64,000 nucleotides of DNA, taken from IMG/VR virus record IMGVR_UViG_3300006141_000001. One strand, written 5' to 3'. Source of the DNA: a virus. Position numbers and translations under genes: made by a program. Below, piece after piece: positions 1,463 to 18,538 of the stretch (positions within the stretch are counted from its first letter, which is position 1; every line of letters starts with the position of its first letter). Under the pieces are notes generated by a model. The model was not told the DNA's origin. It saw only the letters and a program-made list of their open reading frames with translations, and made no database searches.

Positions 1463-4400
1463 ATGAATGATTTTATTGTCCAGCTTATAGCAAGATTAGA
1501 TGCGACAAAAGTGAGCGGTGATATAAAAAAAATAGAAGAGCAACTAAAATCTAAAGGCATAAAATTAAAGCCTGTTATTGACTCATCTGTGACTAAACAA
1601 GAATTGCAAAATTTGTCTGTAGAATTACAATCAATATTAAAAAAATCTGGACTGAATATTGATACGAGTAAAATTCTCAGTTCCATCAACCAGATTATTA
1701 GAGAAACTAATAAGGTTGAAAAAGCTATTGTTTCATACACTAATAAATTAAATGATTTTAAGACAAAATACTCAGAAGCCAGTATTGATTACAGTAGTTT
1801 TGAAAAAGTATTTACTCAATTTAAAAATGGTGAGAAAACTTTGAATGAATTAAGCGTTGCTTGGAATAGGTTAAATAACACTGCAAAGCAAGGCACGCAG
1901 AATTTAAAAAGCAAGTCCTCATCTTTTGACCCAATCCAGCAAACACTAAATGATATGAGAAACTTACCTTCTAATTTGACTTCTTTAGAGAAAAGTATGT
2001 CCTCGCTAAAAGACAAATCTAGTTTGGCTGGAGTTTCCATAAAAGACTTAATGACAGAATATGAGGGTTTGAAAAATGAAATGTCACAAAGCAATGGAAA
2101 AGTCCCATTAACAGATGATTGGACTTTAAGATATAGGACTTTAATGGAAACTGTTCAATCTTTAACGAAACAGGTTGAAACATTAAAAAAAGTCGAAGCT
2201 TCAGATAATTCACAAGTTACAAAACAAGCGAATTATTATTCTACTATTCTATCCAACTATAGGCAGATATACTCTTTAAAGCAAAAGCTATTAACTGCTG
2301 GTAAAGAAGAAGAAAAAATCATCAAAGAACAGCTTCGTTCTCTTAGAGCAAGCAATGCAGCAACTTATAAGCAGTTATCATCTCATGGTTTAAAAGATAA
2401 AGGTTGGCAGTCACAGGTCAATGATTTTAAAAAAAGTGCAGAATATAGTTTGCGGGCGGCAGAAGCAAGGCAAAAAGATAAACAAGCAACTGCTGATGCT
2501 ATAAATGCGGAAAAACAACGGCAAGCGAATTTAAAAGAATCAAACAATATTATTAAAGAGTTGGAAAAATCTTATAATAATATAAGCAAATTACAGATAA
2601 AGAAAAGCACTCTTGATCCATCTGTTGATTCTGAAAAAATCACGAAGCTAAGCCAGGAAATAGCCCTAGCGAAAAGGGAATATGATGCACTTTTGTCTTC
2701 TTATAGCAAGAATAAAAATTTTGATAATTCTGCGTGGAAAAATGTTAAATCTGATATAGATGCCGCAACAAAAAGCGCAATTGAATATAATAATGCTTCT
2801 AAAACTGATTACATAAATAAGCAAAAAGAAAGTTTTTCTATTAATCTCGCTGCTCTAAAAACTTCATTAATAGAAAGTGGAACGTATACAGATGAACTAA
2901 AACAAAAGATTTCTTTGCTAGAGTCCGAACTTGAGAAAGTTTCAAATAAGGGGGATCTGTCCACTTTTAAAAATAATTTAAAATCCATACAAACTGAAAT
3001 CAGTTCATTAACATTGGCAAATAAAATTCAATTGAAAGTTGACAGCGGAGATTCTGAGTCAAGGGTTGAAGCACTTATCGCAAAAACCAATCAATGGACA
3101 GACGTTAATGGAAATGCCAGGATTAGTACGACCAGTTTAAGTCAGGCATTGAATGAATTGACTGCTGCTTCTGAGGCTTACAGAAATAATAATACAGGAG
3201 AAACCCAGAAACGTCTTATTACCGCAAACGAAAAACTTACTGAGGAATACAATAAGGTGACAAGTGCCGTAAGGAGGATGAATGCCACATATGCGAAGGA
3301 TACTGATATCGCTTCTCTACACAATAAGATTGGGGATTTTATTGGGAAAAATGGGGATATCATAAAACATCTCGGCACTGACCTGAATGCGATGTTTAGC
3401 CAAACAGCAAAAGGTTCCCAAATTACAACCCAGGAACTGGCCGCATTAGAGCAGAAATTTATAAGTGTGAAAAATGCCGCCAATCAAATTCAAATGGCAA
3501 ATGCCATACACCTAAAAATAGAAACTGGTGAATCAGAGTCAAAAGTTGCGGCATTGATTGACAAGACAAAGCAATGGACTGACGTGAATGGTAATGCAAG
3601 GATCAGCACATCTAATCTATCTTCTGCCCTACATGAATTAGTCACTGCTTCAAACGAATACGCAGGCAATAAGACAGAAACTGCACAGAAAAAATTGATT
3701 GCGTCCAATGAGAAATTAGATGCGGAGTATAAAAAAGTCGCAAATTCTATAAGGCAGACGAATGCAGAGCTGGCAAAGGATTCTGCTGTGGCCTCCCTGC
3801 ATAATAAAGTTTCTGAATTTATGGGAAAGAATGGCAAAGCTGTAAAATATTATGGCACACAGCTAAAAGATATATTCGACAAGACTGCCCAAGGCTCTGA
3901 AGTGTCGAAACAAAAATTGGCACAGCTAAACCAGGAGTTTATAAAATTACAGAATACAGCAAGGGCTAACGGGAAGCTTGGAAAAACATTTTTCCAGACT
4001 ATAAGGGAAGGGATGAGTTCTTTTTCTTATTGGACAAGTTCTACTTTTATGGTAATGAAGGCTATCCAGTCCGTCAAAAGCGGGATAAGCACTATCAAGG
4101 AACTGGACACTGCTTTGGTTGACTTAAAAAAGACAACTACCATGACAGCAAGTGAGCTGGAGGAATTTTATTATGACGCGAATGAGACTGCTAAGGAAAT
4201 GGGCGTTACTACCCAGCAGATTATAGAACAGGCATCGGCGTGGTCAAGGTTAGGATTTTCCAGTGCAGACGCAGCCACTAAAATGGCGAAATATTCCTCT
4301 ATGTTTAAAACAATATCTCCTGGGATGGATTTAGATTCTGCCACCGATGGTCTTGTTAGCATTATGAAGGCTTTTAAAATTGGGCTGGATGATTCTGATG

Positions 4401-4821
4401 AAGTGGTAGACGGAATTATGAGCAAGATTAATGTCATCGGGAATAGTAAGGCATTAAATAATTCAGATATAGTTGAATTTTTAAGGCGTTCTTCTAGTGC
4501 TATGGCTGAAGCCAATAATAGTCTTGAGGAAACCATAGCCCTCGGTGAAGCGGCTGTGGAGATAACTAGAGATGCCTCAAATACAGGGCAAGTTTTGAAG
4601 ACTACAAGTATGAGAATTAGGGGTTATGACGAGGAAGCACAGAGCTATACAGAAGAATTAGAAAATCTTAAAGGGGAAATTGCAGATTTAACAAAAACAG
4701 CAAAAACCCCAGGAGGAATCAGCCTCTTTACTGATGACACAAAAGAAACTTATAAATCTACATATAAAATTATAGAAGAAATCTCTGAAATATGGGATGA
4801 CCTTACAGATAAAAATCAGGC
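1463..4821 (+). CDS. tape measure protein, exon 1
   Basis: Long helical/coiled-coil ORF with TP901-type TMP core (ELDTALVDLKK...SAWSRLGFS...RIRG...IWDDLTDKNQ). The annotated ORF reads through into intron 1 and stops at 4858. Confidence 0.88.
3017..3960 (+). repeat. in-frame tandem duplication (period 480 nt / 160 aa) within TMP exon 1
   Basis: ANKIQLKVDSGDSESRVEALIAKTNQWTDVNGNARIST at 3017 vs ANAIHLKIETGESESKVAALIDKTKQWTDVNGNARIST at 3497. Confidence 0.9.
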
Positions 4822-5299
4822 AAACAATATGTGCCTGTATGTACAGAAATGTGCATAATATAACACATCTAAAACCAGTAAAACCTAAAGCTCTATCACT
4901 ACAATACGGATGAAATATGCTGGTATGAATGTAACGAAAGTAAAACAACGATAGAGATTCCATATGGCCAAAAGCCTAAGTGGAGATTTTGTCAATTTTA
5001 TATAAATTGAAAATGGTAGCTTGGTCGCAAAGTCCCGAATAGGGATACGTCAAACGACTAGATCCATGTAGGGGTTTGGGCTAGAGAATAAAGGTAAAAT
5101 CCTGAATATCCAAACCTATAATCGTAGGGCGCAAATATATGGCGTGGGTGAGAACCCCTTAAATCGAAACGGTGTGGCTGCTACTCTAATCAGAGTGTGG
5201 TTAAAAAATAGTCTAAACATCTATGGAAACATAGAGATGTTATTGGTTAATTAAATGAGTCTGATTAACTCAAAAAAATATAAGCAGGATAGATAATAT

Positions 5300-5473
5300 A
5301 TGAAGAAATTTGACAAAGAATATTCGACACAATATACTCCTGAAAAAGAATATCTGTCAAAAAAAGGAATTAAACCTTCTTTTGTAAAAATTATAAATGG
5401 AGTAACCACATATAAGTATAAAAAGACACCAGAACTATTTTTAGCTCTAGTGTCTTTTTACATGAAGAAATAA
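5300..5473 (+). CDS. small intron-encoded protein (57 aa) upstream of the endonuclease
   Basis: ORF MKKFDKEYSTQYTPEKEYLSKKGIKPSF...KTPELF read directly; below track cutoff. Confidence 0.6.
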   Translation: MKKFDKEYSTQYTPEKEYLSKKGIKPSFVKIINGVTTYKYKKTPELFLALVSFYMKK

Positions 5474-5507
5474 ATATATGAAAGGATAATAAACTGGTGA
5501 TAATATT

Positions 5508-7019
5508 ATGAAATGGACTTCTGAAGAAGAACGAATAATAAAAGATAATTATAAAAATATGTCTGATATTCAATTGATGAATCTTTTACCAAATAGATCT
5601 AAATCTAGTATAGAATCAAAAAGAAAAGACATGGGATTTATTAGACCAAAATATAAAAAATATTCTTTTGATGATGTTATTGATGAATTTTCTAATAGGA
5701 ATAATTATATTTTATTATCAACAAAAGATGAATTTATAGACTGTAATTCAAAAATGAGGTACATCTGCAAATTACATACAAATAAAGGCGAACAATATAT
5801 ATCATTAAATCATATGATGTCAGGAAGAGGATGTAAATATTGTGGCAGAAAACTTGCCGCTCAAAAAACGATGATTCATCTTGATAAAGAATCTGACAAA
5901 AAATTGTGCGAATCTAAAAATTTTGAATATGTAGATACGGTTAGAGAAAATGGCAAAATTAAAATTGTATTTATCTGCAATAATCACCGAGATTTAGGAG
6001 AGCAAAAGGTATTAAAAAGCAATATGAATCGCAATCAAGGATGCAAGTATTGCTGTGGCAAAGAATTGCCAGAGTGGTATGTGTTGCAAAAATCTCATAA
6101 AATAAACCCAAATATAAAATTATTAGAGCCCTATAAGAATTTAACAACTCGTATAAAATGCTTATGCACGAAACATAATCTTGAGACAAATAAAACAATG
6201 CAACAAATATTAAAAGGACAAGGATGTTGTCTTTGTGGGAGTGAAAAATTATCAAAACAAAAATTTCTTTCTATTGATGAAGTCCAAAACAGTATTAATA
6301 AATATAACCCGCATATTAAAATACAAAAATATAATGGGGCAAACGTTGAATCTACTTTTTATTGCCTAAAGCATAAAAAGATATTCAAAAAATGCTATAG
6401 CACATTATTACATCGTAAAAGCGGATGTGATGAATGTTATGCTGAAAACATTCGCGAAAGACAAGGAATGGGGATTGAGGAATTTAAAAATAGATTGCAA
6501 AAAGTACATCCAGAATTAATAGTGACTGGGGAATATGTAAATAATTCAACACCAATTAATGTATATTGCCAGAAACATAATTATGAATATGCTCTTACTC
6601 CTGTTGCATTATTAGATAGATTGACCTGTTGCAATAAGACACGTATCACATATAAAGAAGAGAATATTTGTCAATTGTTAGAAAAGTGGGGATTTAATAT
6701 AACCAGGCAAAAAATATTTGATGACTGTATTGATAAGCGCGCTTTGCCTTTTGACATTTATTTTGATGATTTCAATACAATTATAGAATATCAAGGAGAG
6801 CAACATTATAAGCCGATTAAATATTCTTCACAATCATATGACGATGCTAAAATCAAATATGAATATACCAAAAAACATGACAAAATAAAAAAAGAATATT
6901 GTAAAAAACACAAAATCAAGTTTATTGAAATTCCTTATTGGGAATTTGATGATTTAGAATATTTTTTATTTGATCAATTAGTTAAGAAGAAGATAATTAT
7001 AGAGAACAAAGCGGCATAA
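5508..7019 (+). CDS. intron-encoded putative homing endonuclease (Zn-binding repeats + C-terminal PD-(D/E)XK/Vsr-like nuclease)
   Basis: Repeated CxxH...GCxxC units; C-terminal LPFDIY...IEYQGEQHY...D..K motif; located in an intron stem loop. Confidence 0.8.
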   Translation: MKWTSEEERIIKDNYKNMSDIQLMNLLPNRSKSSIESKRKDMGFIRPKYKKYSFDDVIDEFSNRNNYILLSTKDEFIDCNSKMRYICKLHTNKGEQYISLNHMMSGRGCKYCGRKLAAQKTMIHLDKESDKKLCESKNFEYVDTVRENGKIKIVFICNNHRDLGEQKVLKSNMNRNQGCKYCCGKELPEWYVLQKSHKINPNIKLLEPYKNLTTRIKCLCTKHNLETNKTMQQILKGQGCCLCGSEKLSKQKFLSIDEVQNSINKYNPHIKIQKYNGANVESTFYCLKHKKIFKKCYSTLLHRKSGCDECYAENIRERQGMGIEEFKNRLQKVHPELIVTGEYVNNSTPINVYCQKHNYEYALTPVALLDRLTCCNKTRITYKEENICQLLEKWGFNITRQKIFDDCIDKRALPFDIYFDDFNTIIEYQGEQHYKPIKYSSQSYDDAKIKYEYTKKHDKIKKEYCKKHKIKFIEIPYWEFDDLEYFLFDQLVKKKIIIENKAA

Positions 7020-7079
7020 TCAACCGTTGCAATAATTAACCAATAACTCGTAAACGTTATGAACTTACGGAATACAATG

Positions 7080-7224
7080 ACAATTGCTTGAAGCTTTAGC
7101 GGGGAAAAGAAATGGGCAGGCTTTAGCAGCTATCATCTCTAATTTTAATAGCGCCCGCGAATCAATGGAACTTATGGAAAATTCTGCTGGAAATGCAGAA
7201 AAGGAAATGTCAGTCGTTGTGGAC
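7080..7224 (+). CDS. tape measure protein, exon 2
   Basis: QLLEALAGKRNGQALAAIISNF...NSAGNAEKEMSVVVD is the expected TMP continuation. Confidence 0.85.
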
Positions 7225-7766
7225 AAACAAAACTGTCCATATGTACAGAAATGTGCATATAGTTCATATTTAATTGCAGGTAATGCGTAAGAGCCTTGCA
7301 CCACAATAATCAGGAAACTAGATTATGAAGGTACGAAAGTAGAAAAAACGCAAGGATGGTATATGGTCAAAAACCTAAGTACTACTCTTATATCAAAAAG
7401 AGAAAATCGCTGTTCATGCAGCCAAACACCCTAACGTATCCCATAGACCATATGGTATTTGAGTCGAGGGTGGAGGTTCAACGATCATTCCCCGTAAGGG
7501 GATTTAGGAATACTGAAAATTCAGTTATAAAATAAAGGTGGAAATCCTGAATACCTAAATCAAAAGAAGTACGGCTTAATCGCAAATGAAGTCGGTGAAA
7601 CTCCGTTAAATGGAAAAGGTATGCTCTTAACACATAATGGTGAAGATGGAAAAATGATCTAAACATCCATGGAAACATGGAGATGCTATTGGTTAACTTA
7701 GAAAATAAACATATTATATTTTAACCAATAACTAATTGGATGTTGCGAATCCGATTGAATATTTTG
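7225..7766 (+). mobile_element. group I intron 2 in TMP gene (no ORF)
   Basis: P1 TGGAC/GTCCA; P10 ACT/AGT; P element AATTGCAGG; R GTTCAACGATCA (7476-7487) pairs with S TGATCT (7655-7660); terminal G 7766. Joining gives VVD-SIDYKLNRLKET in frame. Confidence 0.87.
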
Positions 7767-7967
7767 AGTATCGACTACAAACTAAACCGTCTCAAGGAAA
7801 CAGCCACTGGCACAGCCCAGAACTTATTCAAACGCGAAGACATGAAAACCATCATAGATGGATTGACAGGTCTTTTAAGCGTAATTGACTCATTAACAGA
7901 GAAATTAGGCATATTAGGAACCATAGGATTTGGTGCAGGCCTATTCGCTGGGATTAAAAACGTCGGT
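7767..7967 (+). CDS. tape measure protein, exon 3
   Basis: SIDYKLNRLKETATG...GLFAGIKNVG, TMP-like, with no RBS or start of its own. Confidence 0.82.
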
Positions 7968-8410
7968 AAGCCTAAAATGCGTGGCTTCATATTTTAAACG
8001 TGCCGACAATAATATGTGTTCTTTAGGATACTAAAGTTTCCATATTATCGAATGCGGGATATACGCATGGTAAATAAATAACAGGGACAATATGCGGGAA
8101 AAATTGAGGTACAACGGCTGCGTAATGGCAGTATATCACTACTCTCCTGCCCATGGGAACGTGTGCAGGTTCGTAAAAACGTGACGCTCCTCCAATCCGC
8201 AGGGACAGGCCTATGATGGCAAGCCCTCACAGAGCGGCAACTCCCACAATAAGTCTATTTGAAACGATGCTTATTGAATATGCGCTCGGTGCTGCCTGGC
8301 ATGACAGGTCAATCCGTGAAAAGATTGTACAAATGCGGGAATCTTATCTCCTGCTCATGCAATGTGGAACCCTTATTGCCAAGGGTTGGTAAGAATGGCA
8401 ATATTAAAAT
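7968..8410 (+). ncRNA. catalytic core of group I intron 3
   Basis: GC-rich structured non-coding block with P, Q, R, S elements in correct order (TATGCGGGAA, AATCCGCAG, TCACAGAGCG, AATATGCGCTCG). Confidence 0.8.
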
Positions 8411-8522
8411 TTGTGTAACTCAGAAAAAAGTCGAAAATTTTTTAAAAAATTTATTATAAATTATATTTACAAATTTTACTAATTATGCTACTCTGAAAAT
8501 ATAAAAATTTCGGAGGTGTAAA

Positions 8523-9515
8523 ATGAAAACAGCCAGTAAGGAAAGAACATTACAATGGATTGTAAACCAACATAAAAAAGGAAATATTTCTTTTTCGCAC
8601 AAGCTACAGAGGCCGATTGGGCAATGGAATGCAAGAATGAAGTCCCTATTGATACACAGCCTTTTGTCTGGATTCCCAGTGAACCCCATTTATATAGTAG
8701 ATGAGGATGGAACGTTATATACGCTTGATGGATCGCAAAGAACTTCAACTTGCATCTCCTATATAAACAATGAATTTTCATTAAGCAAAGATACTCCCAA
8801 AATTGTAATTAAAAGCAAAAAAGATGGGGAAACCGTATCGACAGAGTATGATATAGCAGGCAAAAAATTTAGCAAATTAGACGAAGAGGTGAAATCGACC
8901 TTGCTTGCATGTAGTTTAGAATTTTGCACATTATCTGAATATACAGATAATGAGGTCAAGGAAATGTTCAAGAGACAGAATACTTCCAAGCCTTTAAATG
9001 GTAAATTATTGCGCATAGTCCATGAATCAGATGCCTTCAGTGATGCTGTATATTCACTTGCTACTCATCCATTTATGCTTAAAATCACAACGCCAACACA
9101 ACGTAAGAATGGGACAGATAGGGATTTAATCATCCAAACACTTATGCTTATGTGTACTGACAAGGAAAATGATTTTACTTCGTTTAGGACAAAAGACATT
9201 GATGCCTTTGTTCGTGATTATGGTGACAGTATTTTAAACAAGACAGAAGTATTGCAAACTGCACTGGACAATTTTAATAAATCATTTGACGAGATAAAAA
9301 TACCTGTCACATCTGTACCAATGGTGTTATATAGCGGATATCGTATAACCAAAGACAAGAAATCATTCTCAAAATTAGTTGAAATGATAAACGAATTCTT
9401 AAATGGATATGATGGGAACGAAGAATATAAGAAGTATGTGCAATCCGGAACAAGCAATTCTGATAATGTCCGTGGAAGGTTTGATTATTGGAGGGAAAAA
9501 ATCAAGACGGCATAA
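8523..9515 (+). CDS. DUF262 (ParB-like/GmrS-type) domain protein
   Basis: LQRPIGQW...LIHSLLSGFPV..IY...LDGSQR...F.RQN matches DUF262 QR/DGQQR motifs. Confidence 0.8.
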   Translation: MKTASKERTLQWIVNQHKKGNISFSHKLQRPIGQWNARMKSLLIHSLLSGFPVNPIYIVDEDGTLYTLDGSQRTSTCISYINNEFSLSKDTPKIVIKSKKDGETVSTEYDIAGKKFSKLDEEVKSTLLACSLEFCTLSEYTDNEVKEMFKRQNTSKPLNGKLLRIVHESDAFSDAVYSLATHPFMLKITTPTQRKNGTDRDLIIQTLMLMCTDKENDFTSFRTKDIDAFVRDYGDSILNKTEVLQTALDNFNKSFDEIKIPVTSVPMVLYSGYRITKDKKSFSKLVEMINEFLNGYDGNEEYKKYVQSGTSNSDNVRGRFDYWREKIKTA

Positions 9516-9520
9516 ATTAT

Positions 9521-9556
9521 AGCCTGTAAGAAGAATGATTATTTTTCTTGCAGGCT
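9521..9556 (+). terminator. hairpin, probable terminator after DUF262 gene
   Basis: AGCCTGTAAGAAGAAT / ATTTTTCTTGCAGGCT inverted repeat. Confidence 0.6.
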
Positions 9557-9765
9557 TAATTTATAATATTACCATTTTTGTTACGCAAATATTAAGTTAT
9601 TATTAAATAAATGTTAATATACTTGACATTTAGTATTTTTGTGATACACTTTTGATGTTTAATTATATTGATTTGTTACATTTGTACAAAAATCGCTAAG
9701 AAACATTTGATTTTATTTACTATATTCACTAAATTTGATAATATTGTTTTAAAAGGAGGATTATT

Positions 9766-10401
9766 ATGAACAATATTGTCAATTTAAACACTAGGAGAAA
9801 AGATAAAATGAACAAAAATACACTTGTATCAAAATTAGAAGAACAACCAGGAAAAAGCTATACGATAACTCAAGCAGAAGATTTAGCAAAAGACGTATTA
9901 AAAATTTGTGGGTATGATAAATTAGTCGGAGCAATCCCTATAATTAAAGTTGCAAATAATTTTGGGTTTCGATGTGTAAAAGCAACTGTCCCAGAACATA
10001 TTTCTGGAAACATATTTGTAGGCGGTACGACTGAAAACATATATAAATCTGATAAAGTTATTGTTGTTGGAGATAACGAAGATCCAAAACATCAAAGATT
10101 TATTATTGCACATGAACTTGCGCACTACTTAATGGATTATATAGGGAGCGATAAATCAAAAAATCCAAATTTATTGTTTTCTGAAACATATTTAAAAGAA
10201 AATCATGATAACGATAAAGAAATGAGAGCTGATAGGTTTGCTGCTGAACTATTAATGCCATCCATGATATTTTTAAAGCAATTTCTTAAAGTGGCTGAGG
10301 CTTGTGATTATAATAGAAATTATATTATTTCTTACTTATCGAATTTCTTTAAAACTAAGAAAAGTAGTATTGAAAGACGTATAATAGAAGTTCTTTCATA
10401 A
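9766..10401 (+). CDS. ImmA/IrrE family metallopeptidase
   Basis: RFIIAHELAH (HExxH) and E.RADRFAAELLMP motifs. Confidence 0.88.
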   Translation: MNNIVNLNTRRKDKMNKNTLVSKLEEQPGKSYTITQAEDLAKDVLKICGYDKLVGAIPIIKVANNFGFRCVKATVPEHISGNIFVGGTTENIYKSDKVIVVGDNEDPKHQRFIIAHELAHYLMDYIGSDKSKNPNLLFSETYLKENHDNDKEMRADRFAAELLMPSMIFLKQFLKVAEACDYNRNYIISYLSNFFKTKKSSIERRIIEVLS

Positions 10402-10419
10402 AATATCGCGAGGGTAAAA

Positions 10420-10995
10420 ATGACAAATGATAATCGTGGGTTACAAACCCATAATAAATATACAGATGCATATGTTGGAATATTAAAAACATATAAAGAA
10501 CAGATTTCGAATTCTGTAACTAAAAAGAATGAATTAAAAGAAAAATTTTTCAATATAATCAAATGGATGTTGTATGCGTTGACAATTATTTTTGCTCTGA
10601 CTATGATAATTTCTCTTGGATTATTTGGTGTAATGGTATGCAAAGATTCCGAATCATCAGGTATTATTACTGGGGCAATTACCACACTTGTATCTTCTTT
10701 TGTTACAATGGTGTTGTCAATATTTAAACTTCCTAAAATTATTGCAGATTATTTATTCAACAAAGAAGAAGATAAATTAATGAAGGAAATAATTGAAAAT
10801 ATTCAGAGTTACGAAATTGAAGCTGTAAAGTATGAAATTAAAAACACTGAATTAGAAAGAGTTATGCAGTTAAAAACAGGAATAAGTGATGCAACAGATA
10901 AAAATTTAGAAGATTCAAACTACGGCGTGCCAGATGACCATCAAAACTCAGAAGAGACGGAGGACGATGTGTTAGAAGAATCTGATGTTTCTTAG
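10420..10995 (+). CDS. two-TM membrane protein with acidic tail
   Basis: Two hydrophobic segments; 18 nt after the IrrE-like gene. Confidence 0.7.
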   Translation: MTNDNRGLQTHNKYTDAYVGILKTYKEQISNSVTKKNELKEKFFNIIKWMLYALTIIFALTMIISLGLFGVMVCKDSESSGIITGAITTLVSSFVTMVLSIFKLPKIIADYLFNKEEDKLMKEIIENIQSYEIEAVKYEIKNTELERVMQLKTGISDATDKNLEDSNYGVPDDHQNSEETEDDVLEESDVS

Positions 10996-11341
10996 GAATA
11001 TTTTAGATGGATTAAGAACTTTGTAAAACTCAAGATGGAGTAAGTTAATCTTTCGCAGGCTTAAGTTATATGATTTATTCTCATCTGTATTTTAAATCTT
11101 AATTTTTTATTCATTCATGGATCTAATACCCTGCTGCTTGCAACGTTCTGAAGAAGGAGTTAGGGTTAGATATCCAGTAGTTTGTTGCGGATAGTTCGTT
11201 AAGTATTTGACAAATCGTTTAATATATATTATAGATAACATGTTATTTTGGCTTTGTGCATTTTATATAAAAATATTTGATTTTTTATTTATTCCAAAGT
11301 TGTACATTGAATACAAAAGGTTCACAGGAGATAAAATTATA

Positions 11342-13375
11342 ATGAAAAAGGAAAAATTCAAAAGTACATTTGCTATAATACATTTGTCAGATTTGCATAT
11401 CGTATCTCATACAAATGATTATTCAATATCTTTACATAAAATGATTGATCATATTTTCACAGTTACTGAAAACATTTCTAAAATTATTATTGTATTTACT
11501 GGAGATTTAGTTGAGAAAGCGGATTTTTCGAATTCGGAAGAAACTATATATAATTTTTTTAATGATTTATACTCTAAGTTAGGAACTAAAATTATTGATA
11601 TTGTATTCACACCTGGAAATCATGATAAAAAAAGAGGTCTTTTAATGTTAAAGACTTTAAAAAACGAGAACAATGAAAAGTTTTGGGGAAATTTTAAGAA
11701 AAACGAGTGGGCTTATTTTGCGAATCAGTTTGATGAATTCTTGAAAATTACACATACTATAAGAAAAGAAATTTTTAAATTGGGAGATACATTTGAAGGT
11801 ACATATGGTATGCACATCACAGAAATTGATTCTTTTAAAATTTGTTTTCTTTGTATAAATTCTTCATGGTTATGTATAGATGAGAATGATGAGGGCAGAT
11901 TAAGAGTTGGAATGTTTCAATTAGATGATTTAAGGTCAGATTATCAAAACAAAAAATCAGAAATAAATTTGGTTATAGCATTAATGCATCATCCTACAGA
12001 TTGGTTGACAAAAGACGAACAAAAATATTTAAACTTATACATGACAGATGAATATAGATTAAATACAAATATTATGTTACAAGGACATATTCACGAGAGA
12101 GAAACATATAATTGGTATAACCAGAACCATTCATTGACAACTTTAGTAACAGGCATGGGATGGGATCAGCAAAAAGAGATTAAAGATAATGGTCATCGTT
12201 ATTCTTTGTATGAAATTAATATGGATAGTTCTGTCATTAGGGTTAATACATTTGTATCTGACAACACTGGTAGGTTTACTGACGATACCGAAGTGTATAA
12301 AGATAATAACATTATATTCCCATTATTTGTTCATAAATATTTAGAAATGAATAAACTCAGATTCAATGGGAGTGAATACCCTCTTTTTTATCCAAATTAT
12401 AATATTGCAGATAATTATGAGGATATTGCGAATGGGATGAACAAATTTTCTATTAATATAATATCAATAATTAAAGATTTCCATTATGATTGCTTAATTC
12501 TCAATGAATATATCGCCTTTATAAAAGATATTATCATGTCGAGTTATGATGATGGAGAAATAAAATGGTCGAAAGAATTTCAAAATATTATAAAAAACAA
12601 AATTTCAAGAAATGATAAATCTCTATTATTAAAAAAGATCCGTAAAAGTAAAGATAAAGATTTTTATGATATTTTTAATAGTCTATGTACTGTTATTGAT
12701 TTAATTTCTAAAAAAGAAGAAATACGCTCTATAACAAAAATGGAAGAAATTTTAGATAAAATTTGTTTAAAACAAATAAATATTGATGCAAAAGATAAGT
12801 TTTATAGTTTTATTGGCTCTATATGTCTTGAATTGCAAAAATGTATTTTTAAAAAAGAGATTTTTTTTGAAGAATCCCTTTTAAGAATACATTTTCGGAT
12901 TGTAAATTTGATGGAAGACGATATAAAGTATAAAAAGTTATTTTCATATTCAGTGATTCAAGAAAAGGGTACAAAAAAACTAAAACCAATTGAAGACTCT
13001 GAACTGTCTGATATTAGTTATGATGGTAGTATGATAGAAAAGAGTTTTTCTTTAAATCGCTCTATGTTATTTTCACTAAATCCTTCAAGCAACAAACATA
13101 AAAGTGAAAATAATTGGATTGACTTCTTAACTATTGCTCCTAAAAATAGTTTCAATCTTTATAAAACAGATGACGATGATACTATACCATATTTATCTTT
13201 TGGTATCTCCGTAAATAGTTTTAAGCTACAAATATACCTTCGTGAACTGTCATTTATAGGATTTGATAAACTACTCTCAAACATTTTAAGTAATTTTTTT
13301 AAAAATATTCCTTTTGATATATCAACACTCTTAGAGGAGGGGGACAAAGTAAATGAATACGATGAATATTTATAA
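11342..13375 (+). CDS. calcineurin-like metallophosphoesterase with long C-terminal domain
   Basis: HLSDLH, TGDL, PGNHD, MHH, GHIH motifs. Start moved to ATG 11342 (AGGAG RBS); the track's TTG at 11207 is part of a TTGACA box. Confidence 0.85.
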   Translation: MKKEKFKSTFAIIHLSDLHIVSHTNDYSISLHKMIDHIFTVTENISKIIIVFTGDLVEKADFSNSEETIYNFFNDLYSKLGTKIIDIVFTPGNHDKKRGLLMLKTLKNENNEKFWGNFKKNEWAYFANQFDEFLKITHTIRKEIFKLGDTFEGTYGMHITEIDSFKICFLCINSSWLCIDENDEGRLRVGMFQLDDLRSDYQNKKSEINLVIALMHHPTDWLTKDEQKYLNLYMTDEYRLNTNIMLQGHIHERETYNWYNQNHSLTTLVTGMGWDQQKEIKDNGHRYSLYEINMDSSVIRVNTFVSDNTGRFTDDTEVYKDNNIIFPLFVHKYLEMNKLRFNGSEYPLFYPNYNIADNYEDIANGMNKFSINIISIIKDFHYDCLILNEYIAFIKDIIMSSYDDGEIKWSKEFQNIIKNKISRNDKSLLLKKIRKSKDKDFYDIFNSLCTVIDLISKKEEIRSITKMEEILDKICLKQINIDAKDKFYSFIGSICLELQKCIFKKEIFFEESLLRIHFRIVNLMEDDIKYKKLFSYSVIQEKGTKKLKPIEDSELSDISYDGSMIEKSFSLNRSMLFSLNPSSNKHKSENNWIDFLTIAPKNSFNLYKTDDDDTIPYLSFGISVNSFKLQIYLRELSFIGFDKLLSNILSNFFKNIPFDISTLLEEGDKVNEYDEYL

Positions 13376-13613
13376 AACCGTATTTTTAGATCGTATGACA
13401 GCGATAGCATTATTAGTTAGATTACAAAATGGGGATATACCTTATCCACATTCAAAACGATGTCGTGAACAATTAATATATTTTTTATCTTGCATTTTAA
13501 CAGATGAAGACAGAGATGAGCCTATATTAAAAATTGATTTTGAGGAATTAGACATGTTTATAGATGATGTCGATACTGCATTTAAAATAATAGAACAGTA
13601 TGGTATAACATGA
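13353..13613 (+). CDS. small protein overlapping the phosphoesterase stop
   Basis: GAGGAGG RBS inside upstream gene; overlap suggests translational coupling. Confidence 0.7.
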   Translation: MNTMNIYKTVFLDRMTAIALLVRLQNGDIPYPHSKRCREQLIYFLSCILTDEDRDEPILKIDFEELDMFIDDVDTAFKIIEQYGIT

Positions 13614-14056
13614 ATTATAGTTATTCGCACTGTACTTAAATAATAAGAGTGAAATCATTTTACTAATATCTAATCATTTAGTTATATAACTTTCCACACA
13701 CCAAAAACTGGTGCAGACACTTGAATTATCAAGAAAAATTGGTGTCTTGACGTTAAAATAGCACCTAATTCCAGAGTTTTACGTTCTTGTTCGTTGGCAG
13801 ATATCACAGCCTGTATCAAAAGTAAAGTGACCGAATGGATAATCTCTCAGGCGGCATTTATACAGGCTTTGTTTGAAAATATCTGCTGGGAAAGTTGAGC
13901 TATTAAATAAATGATACCCAGATTATTCTTGGGTGTCGGTTTTATTTTACTACTACTCTCCCACTATTGGAAATTTTACAGAGATATATAACAAATACAT
14001 GGCGTACGCGGATTAAACAAAGAAAGTTTTTACTTTATAGGGAGGAAAATAATAAA

Positions 14057-14236
14057 ATGAGTCTAATTGTTTGCTTATTTATAATCATGTTTCTTGCAAT
14101 GTTAATCTTTGGTGGGCTGGATATTCTACGGGATGAAAGAAATCCTCTGCCAAAGTTTGAAAATGGCGATGAGCATATAGAGCAGATTAAAGTTATAAAA
14201 AGAACACGTAAAATCATATTAAATATACTTGAATAG
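14057..14236 (+). CDS. small single-TM membrane protein
   Basis: GGAGG RBS, ATG 14057, hydrophobic N-terminus. Confidence 0.55.
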   Translation: MSLIVCLFIIMFLAMLIFGGLDILRDERNPLPKFENGDEHIEQIKVIKRTRKIILNILE

Positions 14237-14494
14237 ATTGTGTTGTATGTTCGTGAGTTAATCGTATAAACTGTTTGAGAACCCAAATGACTCTTGCCGT
14301 TCGTTATAAGTTACGTTAATCCAAAAGAGAGTCGTATCTAAGGTATCATCAGAATATAGGACGGTGATGGTAGTGAAATTAAAAAGCGCCTTTGGCAGTA
14401 AACTTTTATGAGCAATTAAACAGTTGCTCTTTTTTCGTATCAGAAAGAAATAATTATTCTGGTCATAATACAAAAGCGAAAGGAGGAAAATAGC

Positions 14495-14755
14495 ATGAGT
14501 GAATATGGCGAAACTGAAAGAAAGAATGATTTTAATTATTTTATTGATCATTATCAGGAATTTTACAAACAGTATGGGCATAAATTCATTGCCATTAAGG
14601 ATAAAGAAATTCTCGGATCATATGATACTGAATTGGATGCTATAAATACTACATCTAAAAAATATCCTCTTGGGTCTTTTATTGTCCAGGAATGTAATGG
14701 TGATGAGTCCGGGTATACAAATTATATCTCTTCATGGCAGCTTTTTAGTTTATAG
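14495..14755 (+). CDS. small protein, DUF5678-like
   Basis: AGGAGG RBS; F....EFYKQYGHKFIAI...ILG pattern typical of partners of retropepsin-like proteases. Confidence 0.6.
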   Translation: MSEYGETERKNDFNYFIDHYQEFYKQYGHKFIAIKDKEILGSYDTELDAINTTSKKYPLGSFIVQECNGDESGYTNYISSWQLFSL

Positions 14756-14757
14756 GA

Positions 14758-15198
14758 TTGGCGGTGCAACTAATGATAATATCTGTATTTACTGAAAAAT
14801 ACAATGGGATTCAAAAAAGATTGATTAACTCTGCAATTGCGGAATATAATAATAATGTCGCTCCTGTAAAAGCTCAATGGGACACTGGAGCCACTGGAAC
14901 ATGTATATCAAAGGAACTAGCAAAAAAGTTGAAACTTGTCCCTACTGGCCTTGTAAATGTTCAAACACCATCAGGTAATGGAACTATGAATAAATATATG
15001 ATCGACTTAACATTAAACAACGAAGTCAGAATTAGGAATTTACCTGTTATGGACTCTGAAATTGGGAAACAAGGGATAGATGTGCTGATTGGAATGGATA
15101 TTATTTCTATGGGTGATTTTGCAGTATCCAATTTTAATAAAAAGACGCAATTTTCGTTCAGAATTCCATCTCAAGAGCATGTTGAGTATTGCAGATAA
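14758..15198 (+). CDS. retropepsin-like aspartyl protease
   Basis: WDTGATGTCIS catalytic motif and DVLIGMD motif. Confidence 0.85.
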   Translation: MAVQLMIISVFTEKYNGIQKRLINSAIAEYNNNVAPVKAQWDTGATGTCISKELAKKLKLVPTGLVNVQTPSGNGTMNKYMIDLTLNNEVRIRNLPVMDSEIGKQGIDVLIGMDIISMGDFAVSNFNKKTQFSFRIPSQEHVEYCR

Positions 15199-15454
15199 TC
15201 ACTAGTTGTAGGGAATAATTATTAAAGAGATATGCCTATAAAGTTGATTGCACCCCGCTTTCAACTTGCAGTATTATAAAAAGCGCAATTAAGATAAGCG
15301 TGGAAATATCCAAATTAAATCATGCAAAATTTATGTATTACCGAAGATTGGAAAGAATAAAAGGGAGAGGAACAATTAACATCGGAACAGAAGAAAAATC
15401 TTTTTACCTACGGGTATTTAGATTGTTATATCATTTACTGTAATAAACCAATTA

Positions 15455-15483
15455 AAGACTCTACCTACGGGTAGGGTCTTTTG
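15455..15483 (+). terminator. intrinsic terminator
   Basis: AAGACTCTACC-TACG-GGTAGGGTCTT followed by Ts. Confidence 0.65.
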
Positions 15484-15809
15484 AATGTTCTGTCATCATT
15501 ATGTCTTAAAACATTATAAGGAATTAGAACGCTATAAAATCAGTTCCTTATTTAATGCTATTTGCATTATTGATAATATTGTTGTTTTACCATGTATATC
15601 CGCAATTTTTGCATTTAAATGATTTGTTGATTTTTTTGCTAAATAAACCCAACATTGCTACTGATATTACTCTTTTACAGTCTCCTATCTTCTTTATTTT
15701 TGTTGATGAACATGTTGGGCATTTTAGTTTAAGATTTATTGCTATGATGTTTTTTGAAATTGAATTAAGAGTAAAAAATATATTTGGAAATTCATTTTAT
15801 TATTAGGGT

Positions 15810-15838
15810 TTGACAAACTCAATATTTTATAGTATGCT
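15810..15838 (+). promoter_or_regulatory. sigma-A-type promoter
   Basis: TTGACA-17 nt-TATGCT upstream of ORF 15870. Confidence 0.6.
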
Positions 15839-15869
15839 GCAAATATAAAATATACATGAGGATAAAATA

Positions 15870-16937
15870 ATGGGTTATATCAATAAGCTTTTAGATTCGG
15901 ATTCAGAATCAGTAAATAATATGAAACTTAAACAAATTATCGTACTCGCAGGTGATGGCATTATTACTCATAAAAATTCTTTTGAAGAACTTAGGATGTT
16001 TTTCGCCAAAATTGATGCTACAATGATTTGTAAATTTATGAAAGAATGTTTATCCGAAGAAAAAGAAGACAAATTTGATGGAAGAGGCTTTGTATTACAA
16101 GATTTAATAAATGAAGTCGGGCATCGTCTTGGTTATAATGTAACGCATGGTTTATATAAAGGGAAAAAAGGTACTAATGGATTCGATGGATTATGGAAAC
16201 ATCCAAATGGTTTCTCTATTATTGTGGAGTCTAAAACTTCAGATGCATATGCTTTAAATATAGATTCAATAGTAGGTTATCGTGAAAAGTTAATAGAAAA
16301 CCATCAAATTGATAAAAATAAATGTTCAATACTAATTGTTCTTGGCCGAAATGATAAAAACACTTTTACCAATATCATAAAGGGTTCTAATGAAGCACAT
16401 AACATAAGAATCATCAGTGTTGTGGCACTATGCAGACTTTTAGAAATTTATGAAAGTTCAAATAGGCATAAGATAACGCAGAATAAAATTATGGATTTAT
16501 TAATTCCTCACGATTTTGTTCAATTGGATAACTTGGTTGATCTCGTATTCTTAGAAAATGACAATTCAGAAGTATCTATTGAGGAAACAAGGTCATACAC
16601 AGATATTCCTGAATTGCCAGATAAAAACCTTCTTACTGGCAAATTTGTAAATGAGGCAATGAGAAATCTCAGCAATAGTGGATATGTTTTTTCCGAACAA
16701 CAATTAGAATGTATGATGAGTAAGGAATGGAGCAATAAGGTTTTGAAATTGAATTATCCATTTTTTAAATTTTATAATCCGTCTGACATTAAAGGACACT
16801 ATATCAGAAATGTCCAGCGCTATTATGCAAACACTTTTTCATTTGGAAATGTTACTGTATATATAACAAAAGAATGGTATCCAAAAAACAAAAAGCCATT
16901 TATAGAATGGTATGAATCACTTACATATACACTATAG
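15870..16937 (+). CDS. PD-(D/E)XK restriction-endonuclease-like protein
   Basis: Q/E...GFDGLW...IVESKTS catalytic-type motif; separate C-terminal domain; no adjacent methyltransferase. Confidence 0.7.
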   Translation: MGYINKLLDSDSESVNNMKLKQIIVLAGDGIITHKNSFEELRMFFAKIDATMICKFMKECLSEEKEDKFDGRGFVLQDLINEVGHRLGYNVTHGLYKGKKGTNGFDGLWKHPNGFSIIVESKTSDAYALNIDSIVGYREKLIENHQIDKNKCSILIVLGRNDKNTFTNIIKGSNEAHNIRIISVVALCRLLEIYESSNRHKITQNKIMDLLIPHDFVQLDNLVDLVFLENDNSEVSIEETRSYTDIPELPDKNLLTGKFVNEAMRNLSNSGYVFSEQQLECMMSKEWSNKVLKLNYPFFKFYNPSDIKGHYIRNVQRYYANTFSFGNVTVYITKEWYPKNKKPFIEWYESLTYTL

Positions 16938-17133
16938 GGCATAATTTCCACATAGATAAAGGATTACTGTCAAATAGTATAGCAACCATTTATTTCTGTG
17001 AAAATTCATGATTCAAAAGGGATCCATAGAAGCAGGAAGAAAAAGGAAATTGACGAATAATATCTGTGTATGATATTATTGTTATATAAATATAGGTTTC
17101 TTTTTTGTTCATAAAAAATTCACATTCTGTTCG

Positions 17134-17162
17134 TTGACTGTTCTTTGAAATTGGTGTATACT
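17134..17162 (+). promoter_or_regulatory. promoter of type III TA locus
   Basis: TTGACT-17 nt-TATACT. Confidence 0.7.
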
Positions 17163-17190
17163 ATTAGCAAGAAATCTAAAAGGTTTCTAA

Positions 17191-17310
17191 CAAATACGTT
17201 TCACAATGTACGATACCCAAACATTGTTTATTCAATTACATTTCGCAATGTATGACAAGGAAACATTGCCTATACAAATACGTTTCACAATGTACGACAA
17301 AGAAACATTG
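17191..17310 (+). ncRNA. type III antitoxin RNA: about 2.9 tandem 42-nt repeats
   Basis: Units start at 17191, 17233 and 17275 (CAAATACGTTTCACAATGTACGA...AAACATTG) between promoter and terminator. Confidence 0.82.
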
Positions 17311-17312
17311 TT

Positions 17313-17341
17313 AAGACCTTTGTATAAACAAAGGTCTTTTT
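17313..17341 (+). terminator. terminator between antitoxin repeats and toxin
   Basis: AAGACCTTTGT-ATAA-ACAAAGGTCTT followed by T run. Confidence 0.85.
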
Positions 17342-17355
17342 ACTGGGAGATAATT

Positions 17356-17850
17356 ATGATACAAAATGGTATGTACTATATGACTGATGAATATAAAGAT
17401 TTAGTATGTTCACTGGGCGGCGAATGGAATGATAGAAAAAAACGTCCTATAGTTTGTTTATTACAATCTACAGAAAATCCAGAGCTTTACTGGGCTATCC
17501 CCGTAGGGAAAGTAAATCACAGAGATGACAAAGCACTAAAAAGAATAAATATGTATATGTCTTACAAGGATATACGTGGATGTTTTTATCATATTGGCAG
17601 AACAACAAACAAATCTATATTTTTTATTTCAGATGCCGTCCCTATCACTAATAAATACATACTAGAAGAACATTTAGGAGCAGACAAATGCCATTATATA
17701 TTAAAAAATCCTAAATTAATTTCTATCTTAGAAACAAAACTAAAACGTATATTATCATGGGAAAACGCAAACCCAAATTCGTTTAGACAACATATTACAG
17801 ATATTAAAAATTATCTACTTAATGAATTGAATAAAGCGGATTCTATTTAA
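17356..17850 (+). CDS. type III toxin-antitoxin endoribonuclease toxin (CptN/ToxN-like)
   Basis: YYMTDEY...RPIVC...YWAIP motif; canonical repeat-terminator-toxin layout; start 17356 with GGGAG RBS. Confidence 0.8.
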   Translation: MIQNGMYYMTDEYKDLVCSLGGEWNDRKKRPIVCLLQSTENPELYWAIPVGKVNHRDDKALKRINMYMSYKDIRGCFYHIGRTTNKSIFFISDAVPITNKYILEEHLGADKCHYILKNPKLISILETKLKRILSWENANPNSFRQHITDIKNYLLNELNKADSI

Positions 17851-17988
17851 TCATTCTAGGACTATAATAATATTTATATGCAGACAAAATGGCTCTACAG
17901 AAAACATAAATGTAAAGTCATTTTTTGTATAAAAATTACATACACTATTATACTTTTTAGAAAGGACGTGGTTTGACATATGATTTAG

Positions 17989-18381
17989 CTAATTATTTAT
18001 TTCAATCTCTGTCCATTGATCATCACCACCATTAATAGTTAGTTGAGCCATTATAAGTGCATAGTCACCGTACTCGATAATTTTTTCATAATCGTCATCT
18101 TCTATTGTTTGATATATACTATCATAAAAAATGGAATTGTCGTCAAGTAGTATTATTGCTTTATCGTTACTATGATTTGAAGAATAAAATTCTAAATATA
18201 CAGCATTTTTTTCTTTATTATATAAGCATTGATTTATTGATATTTCGTCTGATAAATCCTTATTTATTATTTCTCTTGATTCTTTTATAATCTTATCTTC
18301 TGGCGAACTAGATGAACATCCAGAAATTATAGTTAAGACAATAAAAATTATTAATATGACTTTATTTTTTAGTTGTTTCAT
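17989..18381 (-). CDS. lipoprotein (possible superinfection exclusion)
   Basis: MKQLKNK + hydrophobic stretch + ISGC lipobox; GGAAGGTG RBS; function inferred. Confidence 0.7.
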   Translation of the reverse strand: MKQLKNKVILIIFIVLTIISGCSSSSPEDKIIKESREIINKDLSDEISINQCLYNKEKNAVYLEFYSSNHSNDKAIILLDDNSIFYDSIYQTIEDDDYEKIIEYGDYALIMAQLTINGGDDQWTEIEINN

Positions 18382-18538
18382 GATATCCACCTTCCTTGAA
18401 TTATTTTTACTAATTATAACATTTTTGAATAAAATATTCAATATTTTTGTATTAAATATTTTTGTATTAAATATTTTATTTACACTTTGGTAACTCCACA
18501 ATACCAAAAATAATACTTATGTATTATATTACAGTATG

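Follow-up and report, generated by a model that had tools for sequence, protein, structure and literature searches.

A predicted 10.6-kb group I intron with multi-gene cargo in the tape-measure gene of a temperate gut phage

The window analysed here, a stretch of 64,000 nucleotides (nt), belongs to a linear virus record of 169,653 nt (IMG/VR IMGVR_UViG_3300006141_000001; 70% complete according to CheckV) of a temperate, Clostridia-type gut phage, whose genome encodes three tyrosine recombinases and whose relatives come from assemblies of Lachnospiraceae, Ruminococcus and other Clostridia. Its tape-measure protein (TMP) gene is split into four pieces, all on the plus strand. Exon 1 (1463-4821), with a PhageMin_Tail domain near its end, is followed by intron 1 (4822-7079), whose junction is ungapped relative to uninterrupted TMPs, and then by exon 2 (7080-7224), intron 2 (7225-7766) and exon 3 (7767-7967), the 67 codons of which finish on the last codon of a conserved KNVG motif. 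The remaining piece, exon 4 (18539-26680; 2,713 codons, without a Shine-Dalgarno (SD) sequence), lies beyond a 10,571-nt interval (intron 3, 7968-18538) that consists of a ribozyme, a cargo of genes and a 3' module. A first-pass annotation had proposed that this interval is a giant group I intron carrying a defence island, and intron 3 is the subject of the present analysis. At their 5' splice sites introns 1 and 2 have C-G in place of U.G; they also share their first six bases, and intron 1 encodes a 503-amino-acid (aa) endonuclease.

Joining the four exons, including position 7967 to 18539, yields a single open frame of 3,949 aa that is ungapped relative to uninterrupted TMPs, in keeping with the earlier claim that splicing to G18538 is in frame. 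Across the junction the joined protein reads KNVG-KFKTY where the uninterrupted TMP P0083 reads KNFG-SIKTW, without a gap, and over the first 319 aa of exon 4 the identity to the part of P0083 beyond the junction is 51%. Relatives were sought with a short DNA pattern, a scan that also returned many unrelated contigs, which were filtered out; 3' sites were located by a protein motif of the distal exon, with no G required, and five 3' calls inside cargo genes as well as three loci with a different ribozyme are excluded from the statistics. Both ends were recovered for 26 interrupted loci, 15 of which could be compared with an uninterrupted homologue of the exon 4 start, and in 14 of these 15 the junction falls at the same codon, as judged against four different uninterrupted TMP lineages. 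All loci with both ends recovered are colinear, the search having covered downstream sequence on the same strand only. The sample, which is biased towards interrupted genes, contains 111 distinct interrupted junctions versus 61 uninterrupted ones, and near-identical TMPs without the insert occur at L047/L048. A TMP tree, built from an incomplete search, proved unreliable, with rows out of register and some frameshifted contigs labelled interrupted, and we therefore drew no count of gains and losses from it. A collection of isolated phages searched with exon 3 plus the ribozyme returned no match.

The 3' boundary is framed by a candidate P9.0 helix, formed by 8289-8294 on the 5' side and by 18532-18537 on the 3' side, with four Watson-Crick and two G.U pairs, and by the terminal (omega) G18538 that completes the 3' strand. 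This pairing is present as the first-pass annotation had read it, but by itself the match does not exceed chance: 14 G residues in 8295-18538 follow a 6-mer able to pair with 8289-8294, and the identical 7-mer of the P9.0 3' strand recurs at 13602 and 14576. Given 14 equivalent sites, P9.0 complementarity was rejected as stand-alone proof. We instead place the 3' site at G18538 because of the ungapped TMP colinearity, the top rank of this residue in a profile search and the presence of the only loop-presented docking motif (see below) 38-43 nt upstream. The profile was built from relatives, with the window left out of training, and places G18538 top in the 169-kb genome, both strands included (18.8 versus 14.5).

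Among the relatives, all 26 loci have a G immediately before the distal exon (third-position background 10.7%), and the last codon reads ATG in 14, ACG in 8, GTG in 2, CTG in 1 and TCG in 1, indicating that the constraint acts on the G and not on a start codon. P9.0 covaries, as had been predicted, with 125 of 130 cells paired and T-A, G-C, C-G and A-T all represented at position 2, a level of pairing reached by 23 of 20,000 shuffles (slid controls give 9-75); the window copy has a compensatory G-C of its own at position 6. An SD sequence is likewise missing before ATG 18536, where pairing to the anti-SD is worth +0.9 kcal/mol versus -5.6 to -12.9 kcal/mol at eight neighbouring genes, it is found before the distal exon in none of the 26 loci, and three loci have no start codon from -3 to +150. 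The non-start last codons (ACG, TCG or CTG) and the missing SD together argue that the distal half is not a separate gene, and the earlier view that exon 4 has no start of its own thus extends to the relatives. Their P1 loop complements the first 10-12 nt of the distal exon (P10; median at the 0.65th percentile of decoys), and a matched-versus-shuffled test of P10 was not significant (5167/20000) because the exon starts are alike. Within the membrane-protein gene of the window cargo, 21 nt (10826-10846) are 90% identical to the true 3' junction and lack a docking hairpin; they may form a cryptic site.

At the other end of the interval, the P1 helix (7962-7967/8002-8007) has U.G at the splice site and a stop codon in its loop, and a degenerate P10 guide lies at about 7989-8001. 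The ribozyme core (8010-8288) is made up of P2, P2.1, a short P3 (8084-8087/8242-8245), P4 (8093-8097/8197-8201), an extended P5, P6, J6/7 (8227-8229), P7 (8230-8236/8283-8288, with the invariant G8232-C8287) and P8, so that the P1 with its U.G, the P4, the J6/7 and the P7 read from the window by the first-pass annotation are all in place. Comparative genomics bears out their conservation. Across 23 aligned 5' modules, 84.4% of helix cells are paired versus 68.0% in shuffled and 31-46% in slid controls, and two-sided changes occur in 37 of 52 core pairs. P7 is 100% paired, covaries in four of six pairs and keeps the guanosine-site G-C invariant, while P4 (91%), P6 (100%), P8 (82%), P3 (74%) and P1 (96.4%, two covarying pairs) are also largely paired. 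The 5' splice-site pair is U.G in 18 sequences and C.A in 5, a swap that keeps the geometry of the splice site; the C.A lineage (L140, L158, L194, L340 and L348) also has G-C, not C-G, as its first P7 pair. The core model was derived from the window sequence and the shuffles ignore shared ancestry, for which reason these statistics are not probabilities. The core has no P7.1/P7.2, only 5 nt separate P7 from P3, and among the group I classes it is closer to IC than to IA2 introns. Judged by its sequence, the element would pass for a group I intron in every respect save an Rfam match and, in the window copy, P10.

Between the core and the cargo lies a predicted P9 domain (8295-8394) with hairpins, in which a loop (8341-8348) is complementary to 8388-8394 and which includes a docking segment (8363-8368); the motifs at 8341-8348 and 8388-8394 are both present in 26 of 26 loci. 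Shortly before the 3' site, a docking hairpin (18486-18508) with a 7-bp stem displays in its loop a motif (18495-18500) complementary to 8363-8368. The corresponding hairpin of the relatives is situated 23-44 nt before the terminal G, has a stem of 5 bp or more in 25 of the 26 loci versus 12.6% at random cargo positions and varies in stem sequence by lineage. Its loop comes in two main types, complementary to a segment 60-75 nt past P7, and loop type and P9 segment change together with no discordant pair; the longest perfect complement between the two averages 7.08 nt in matched versus 5.78 nt in shuffled combinations (0/20,000). Five copies of the docking motif occur in 8400-26700, of which only 18495-18500 is in a loop with a good stem. 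We infer from these patterns that the hairpin loop pairs with the P9 segment. In isolated folds of most relatives the segment is not predicted to be single-stranded, and its duplex energy did not discriminate it from decoy windows (median 41st percentile), whereas the matched-versus-shuffled and loop tests did discriminate. Docking hairpins also occur in tandem, four in L014 and L332 and two in L333. The core and boundaries described by the first-pass annotation therefore stand, but it had missed this hairpin, the degenerate P10 of the window copy and a candidate phage RNA polymerase (see below).

What lies between the two ends differs widely among relatives. The insert measures 741 to 14,266 nt across the 26 loci and about 23.5 kb in G001 (G001:C1:48630-72159; L337, L349), where it contains TnpB and many other genes; the 741-nt version (L282, 10706-11446) is free of cargo and has a compensatory P9.0 change. 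The cargo of 25 relatives amounts to 158 proteins in 96 clusters, among them ToxN/AbiQ, IrrE/CapP, NsnA/NsnB, PD-T4-2 and NYN proteins, repressors, antirepressors, insertion sequence (IS) genes and endonuclease-like genes, and each of the 25 loci that bear cargo has its last cargo gene on the minus strand. Variable cargo between a conserved core and a conserved 3' module, as the first-pass annotation had foreseen, is thus seen across relatives, and the comparative tests of core, P9.0, terminal G and cargo all came out in favour of a 3' site at G18538 and of a P9 region with variable cargo. L125, L126 and L127 have exon 4 and the 3' module in common but three different ribozymes, and this combination argues that modules have been exchanged. 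The nearest TMP relatives of the window have another ribozyme type at the same codon, and other ribozyme types with inserts of 0.9-8.6 kb occupy it in L049-L051, L059-L061, L100-L113, L127 and L252. Stranded 3' modules, which suggest that inserts grow by adding blocks of cargo plus 3' module, are located at +5675, +7213 and +10350 from the 5' site in L333 and at +4126 in L014, as possible competing or alternative 3' sites, and G001 has one at 70817 that is followed by 13 codons and a stop.

The cargo of the window comprises 11 open reading frames (ORFs), ten on the plus and one on the minus strand, close to the ten or so accessory genes counted before. On the plus strand, a 330-aa DUF262/GmrSD_N (NsnA-like) protein (8523-9515) precedes an ImmA/IrrE metallopeptidase (CapP-like) with a two-helix membrane protein (9766-10995), a 677-aa metallophosphoesterase with an 86-aa partner (11342-13613; N-terminal similarity to DS-8/PDC-S60 below the cut-off), a 59-aa hydrophobic ORF with an SD (14057-14236), a DUF5678 protein with a retropepsin-like aspartyl protease (14495-15198), a 355-aa restriction-endonuclease-like protein that we regard as a lead only (15870-16937; scores 0.86-0.88) and a type III toxin-antitoxin module (17190-17850). 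A lipoprotein-like gene (17989-18381) follows on the minus strand, with an extended -10 promoter at 18441-18413. The most constant of the cargo genes is the one for the DUF262 protein, present in the inserts of 12 of 25 relatives and usually first past the ribozyme, the IrrE peptidase/membrane protein pair recurs in L014 and L340, and the phosphoesterase and its partner are 70% and 68% identical to a pair in L333. The toxin-antitoxin module has the make-up of CptIN, with three 42-nt RNA repeats matching RF02920 (17192-17311; 101 bits), a terminator hairpin (17313-17338) and a CptN-like toxin (17356-17850; E 6e-6 against PDB 4RMO) that scores 51.9 bits with NF047359, below the cut-off of 90. 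RF02920 is Rfam Fusobacteriales-1, listed as cis-regulatory; its place directly before a terminator and a CptN-like toxin makes it look like a type III antitoxin RNA.

Two further assignments were rejected, Menshen because the NsnA-like gene has no NsnB/C and DS-8 because the match spans 291 of 994 positions (112 versus 790 bits), and the other cargo matches are partial or under curated cut-offs. The proposed defence island is accordingly better described as an accessory island rich in defence-like genes, in which only the type III toxin-antitoxin module has a complete known architecture. Similarly, the cargo promoters that had been claimed have good matches upstream of several genes, but promoter-like sites are not enriched overall (81 versus 72 ± 9). 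No homing endonuclease family matched intron 3, and the 355-aa nuclease-like ORF is not common to relatives; an ORF related to the intron 1 endonuclease occurs in L062 and L245. Neither recombinase nor transposase genes were found in the window insert, and no repeat links its two ends.

Taken together, these data make splicing at the 7967/18539 junction, whether in cis or in trans, highly probable, and we think it fairly likely that the four pieces are exons of one 3,949-aa TMP and that 7968-18538 would be removed from the RNA in cis as one group I intron. As for the transcript, a 942-codon frame on the strand of the tail genes and upstream of them matches PF05183 over the cut-off, and from this one profile match we infer that it may encode a YonO-like single-chain RNA polymerase (candidate at G000:C1:125700-126776, minus strand; L350). 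The polymerase fragment gave no match in the PDB, and a search of the genome for sigma-70 came back empty. The SPbeta YonO enzyme is processive, and the SPbeta late genes are transcribed as one operon (PMC5467207). In the mechanism that we propose, a YonO-like polymerase would make a single long RNA of the late region, passing the host-type terminators of the cargo, and the ribozyme would fold early and cut the 5' site. Once the far end is transcribed, the hairpin loop would dock on P9, P9.0 would form, the terminal G would enter P7 and the exons would be joined. The cargo would be expressed separately from host-type promoters, probably in the lysogen, and the last cargo gene, by facing away from exon 4, would prevent transcription of the cargo from running on into the tail genes downstream. 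Few TMP copies are needed per virion, so that a low splicing efficiency may be tolerated. Constraint is confined to about 430 nt of the 5' end and 55 nt of the 3' end, which could make the interval a hot spot for the gain and exchange of accessory, toxin-antitoxin and defence-like genes.

Several observations weigh against removal in cis as a single intron. L014, L333 and G001 carry stranded 3' modules, complete with hairpin, P9.0, G and 13-72 dead-exon codons, and a ribozyme acting in cis would meet these upstream copies first. At least four sense-strand terminator-like hairpins lie in the window cargo (three from a scan plus the toxin-antitoxin terminator), and the RNA repeats of the toxin could be cut within the precursor. 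At the level of the ribozyme, Rfam gives no group I match to intron 3, at gathering thresholds or at E<=10, and likewise misses introns 1 and 2; P3 of the window copy has only 4 bp, its P10 is degenerate (-0.2 kcal/mol, 94th percentile), and some covarying cells stem from single lineages, in tests whose shuffles take no account of ancestry. Terminators, an RNase toxin, inserts of up to 23.5 kb and tolerated stranded modules would all be accommodated if the same ribozyme and junction were used but the halves met in trans or after breakage of the loop, with an exon 3-ribozyme RNA that ends or is cut inside the cargo and a separate RNA of hairpin, G and exon 4 that docks on it; the loop-presented pairing and the up to four tandem hairpins of long inserts also fit such an encounter. 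We regard this arrangement as a possible but rather doubtful one, given that the last cargo gene often starts only 65-120 nt from the 3' site, that extended -10 boxes near this site favour the minus strand (12 versus 4 of 26) with no conserved sense promoter seen, that the loci with both ends are colinear within the downstream, same-strand search and that the SPbeta late genes form one operon.

Other readings dispense with splicing altogether or in this copy. Were the TMP made as two proteins, exons 1-3 would stop in the P1 loop and translation of the distal ORF would begin at ATG 18536 on an mRNA that is leaderless or has no SD, with the ribozyme a relic or serving RNA cleavage only. The terminal G does lie within an ATG here and in 14 of 26 loci, and the P10 of the window copy is weak, but an ACG, TCG or CTG end in 10 of 26 loci, the three loci without a start codon in -3..+150, the SD found in none, the extra residue that a start Met would add relative to uninterrupted homologues and the conservation of terminal G, P9.0, P10 and docking loop make this account improbable. 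A family that splices could also include a decaying copy in the window, with the record a defective prophage: P10 and P3 are weak, P9.0 has two G.U pairs, an extra hairpin precedes the 3' site and the record is linear and 70% complete. We consider such decay very unlikely, as all four exons are open across 3,949 codons, P4, P6, P7 and P8 are fully paired, and P9.0 contains, at position 6, a compensatory G-C particular to this copy. Least credible of all is that a recombinase excises the insert as DNA before late expression, with the hairpins as DNA sites; the genome does encode three tyrosine recombinases, but the ends share no joining repeat, the insert has no recombinase or transposase, and the G-binding geometry, the U.G/C.A pair and the terminal G are signatures of RNA catalysis.

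In its accessory content the predicted intron recalls prophage defence hot spots and morons, such as those of P2/P4, which hold variable accessory or defence genes at a fixed position under their own promoters; the hot spots known so far are intergenic, whereas the present one interrupts the frame of an essential gene. Group I introns in prophage TMP genes are known from TMP-IVS1-3 of the B. cereus group and from Lactobacillus phage JCL1032 (PMC2504315), which share with the present element an in-frame ribozyme, an early stop in P1/P2 and different ribozymes at one site with the same P1/P10. Those introns are of IA1/IA2 type and encode no more than one homing endonuclease, as against an insert of 10.6 kb here (0.7-23.5 kb in relatives) that bears many genes, separately promoted and on either strand, as well as a docking hairpin at its distal end. 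IStrons such as CdISt1 and BcISt1 (PMC4227781), also of Firmicutes hosts, likewise carry DNA cargo after the P9 domain that is co-spliced with the ribozyme, but they combine an IA2 core, which includes P7.1/P7.2, with an IS200/605 or IS607 element and occupy many unrelated sites. Identity with IStrons was rejected, as the core here has no P7.1/P7.2, the window copy has no such transposase and the site is a single fixed TMP codon; IS genes are occasional cargo in relatives. A further parallel is the hexacoral mitochondrial ND5-717 intron (PMC6545197), a giant group I intron of up to 19.3 kb with 2-16 genes in a peripheral element and splicing shown by RNA data. It is organellar and vertically inherited, holds core genes in P8 and back-splices on a small circular genome, in contrast to the predicted phage element with its fast-turnover accessory genes after P9. 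A candidate single-chain polymerase related to PF05183 and a long late region are shared with SPbeta-like temperate phages (PMC5467207), for which no such TMP intron was found in the literature searched. Nor did that literature, drawn largely from outside the subscription journals, yield a description of a phage intron with variable cargo of several genes or with a docking hairpin.

TMP group I introns, IS cargo after P9 and multi-gene giant introns of coral mitochondria are thus each known separately. On balance we lean slightly towards the view that widespread phage group I introns form a cargo bay of up to 23 kb in an essential TMP gene, that they find the 3' site through a hairpin-loop address pairing with P9, possibly across broken or separate RNAs, and that cargo, ribozyme and C-terminal exon are swappable modules. 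If spliced, the intron would exceed by far the length of the TMP introns and IStrons in the literature compared. The interruption being common, the TMP of many gut phages has probably been annotated wrongly as two genes, which would make estimates of tail length wrong. The docking hairpin would give a short answer, open to test, to the question of how a ribozyme reaches a 3' site 10-20 kb distant, which is of relevance to engineered trans-splicing, and the insert provides a defined place in which to seek new defence genes. If splicing takes place, a selfish RNA would have become a place, within an essential gene, in which temperate gut phages store and trade toxin-antitoxin and defence-like genes.

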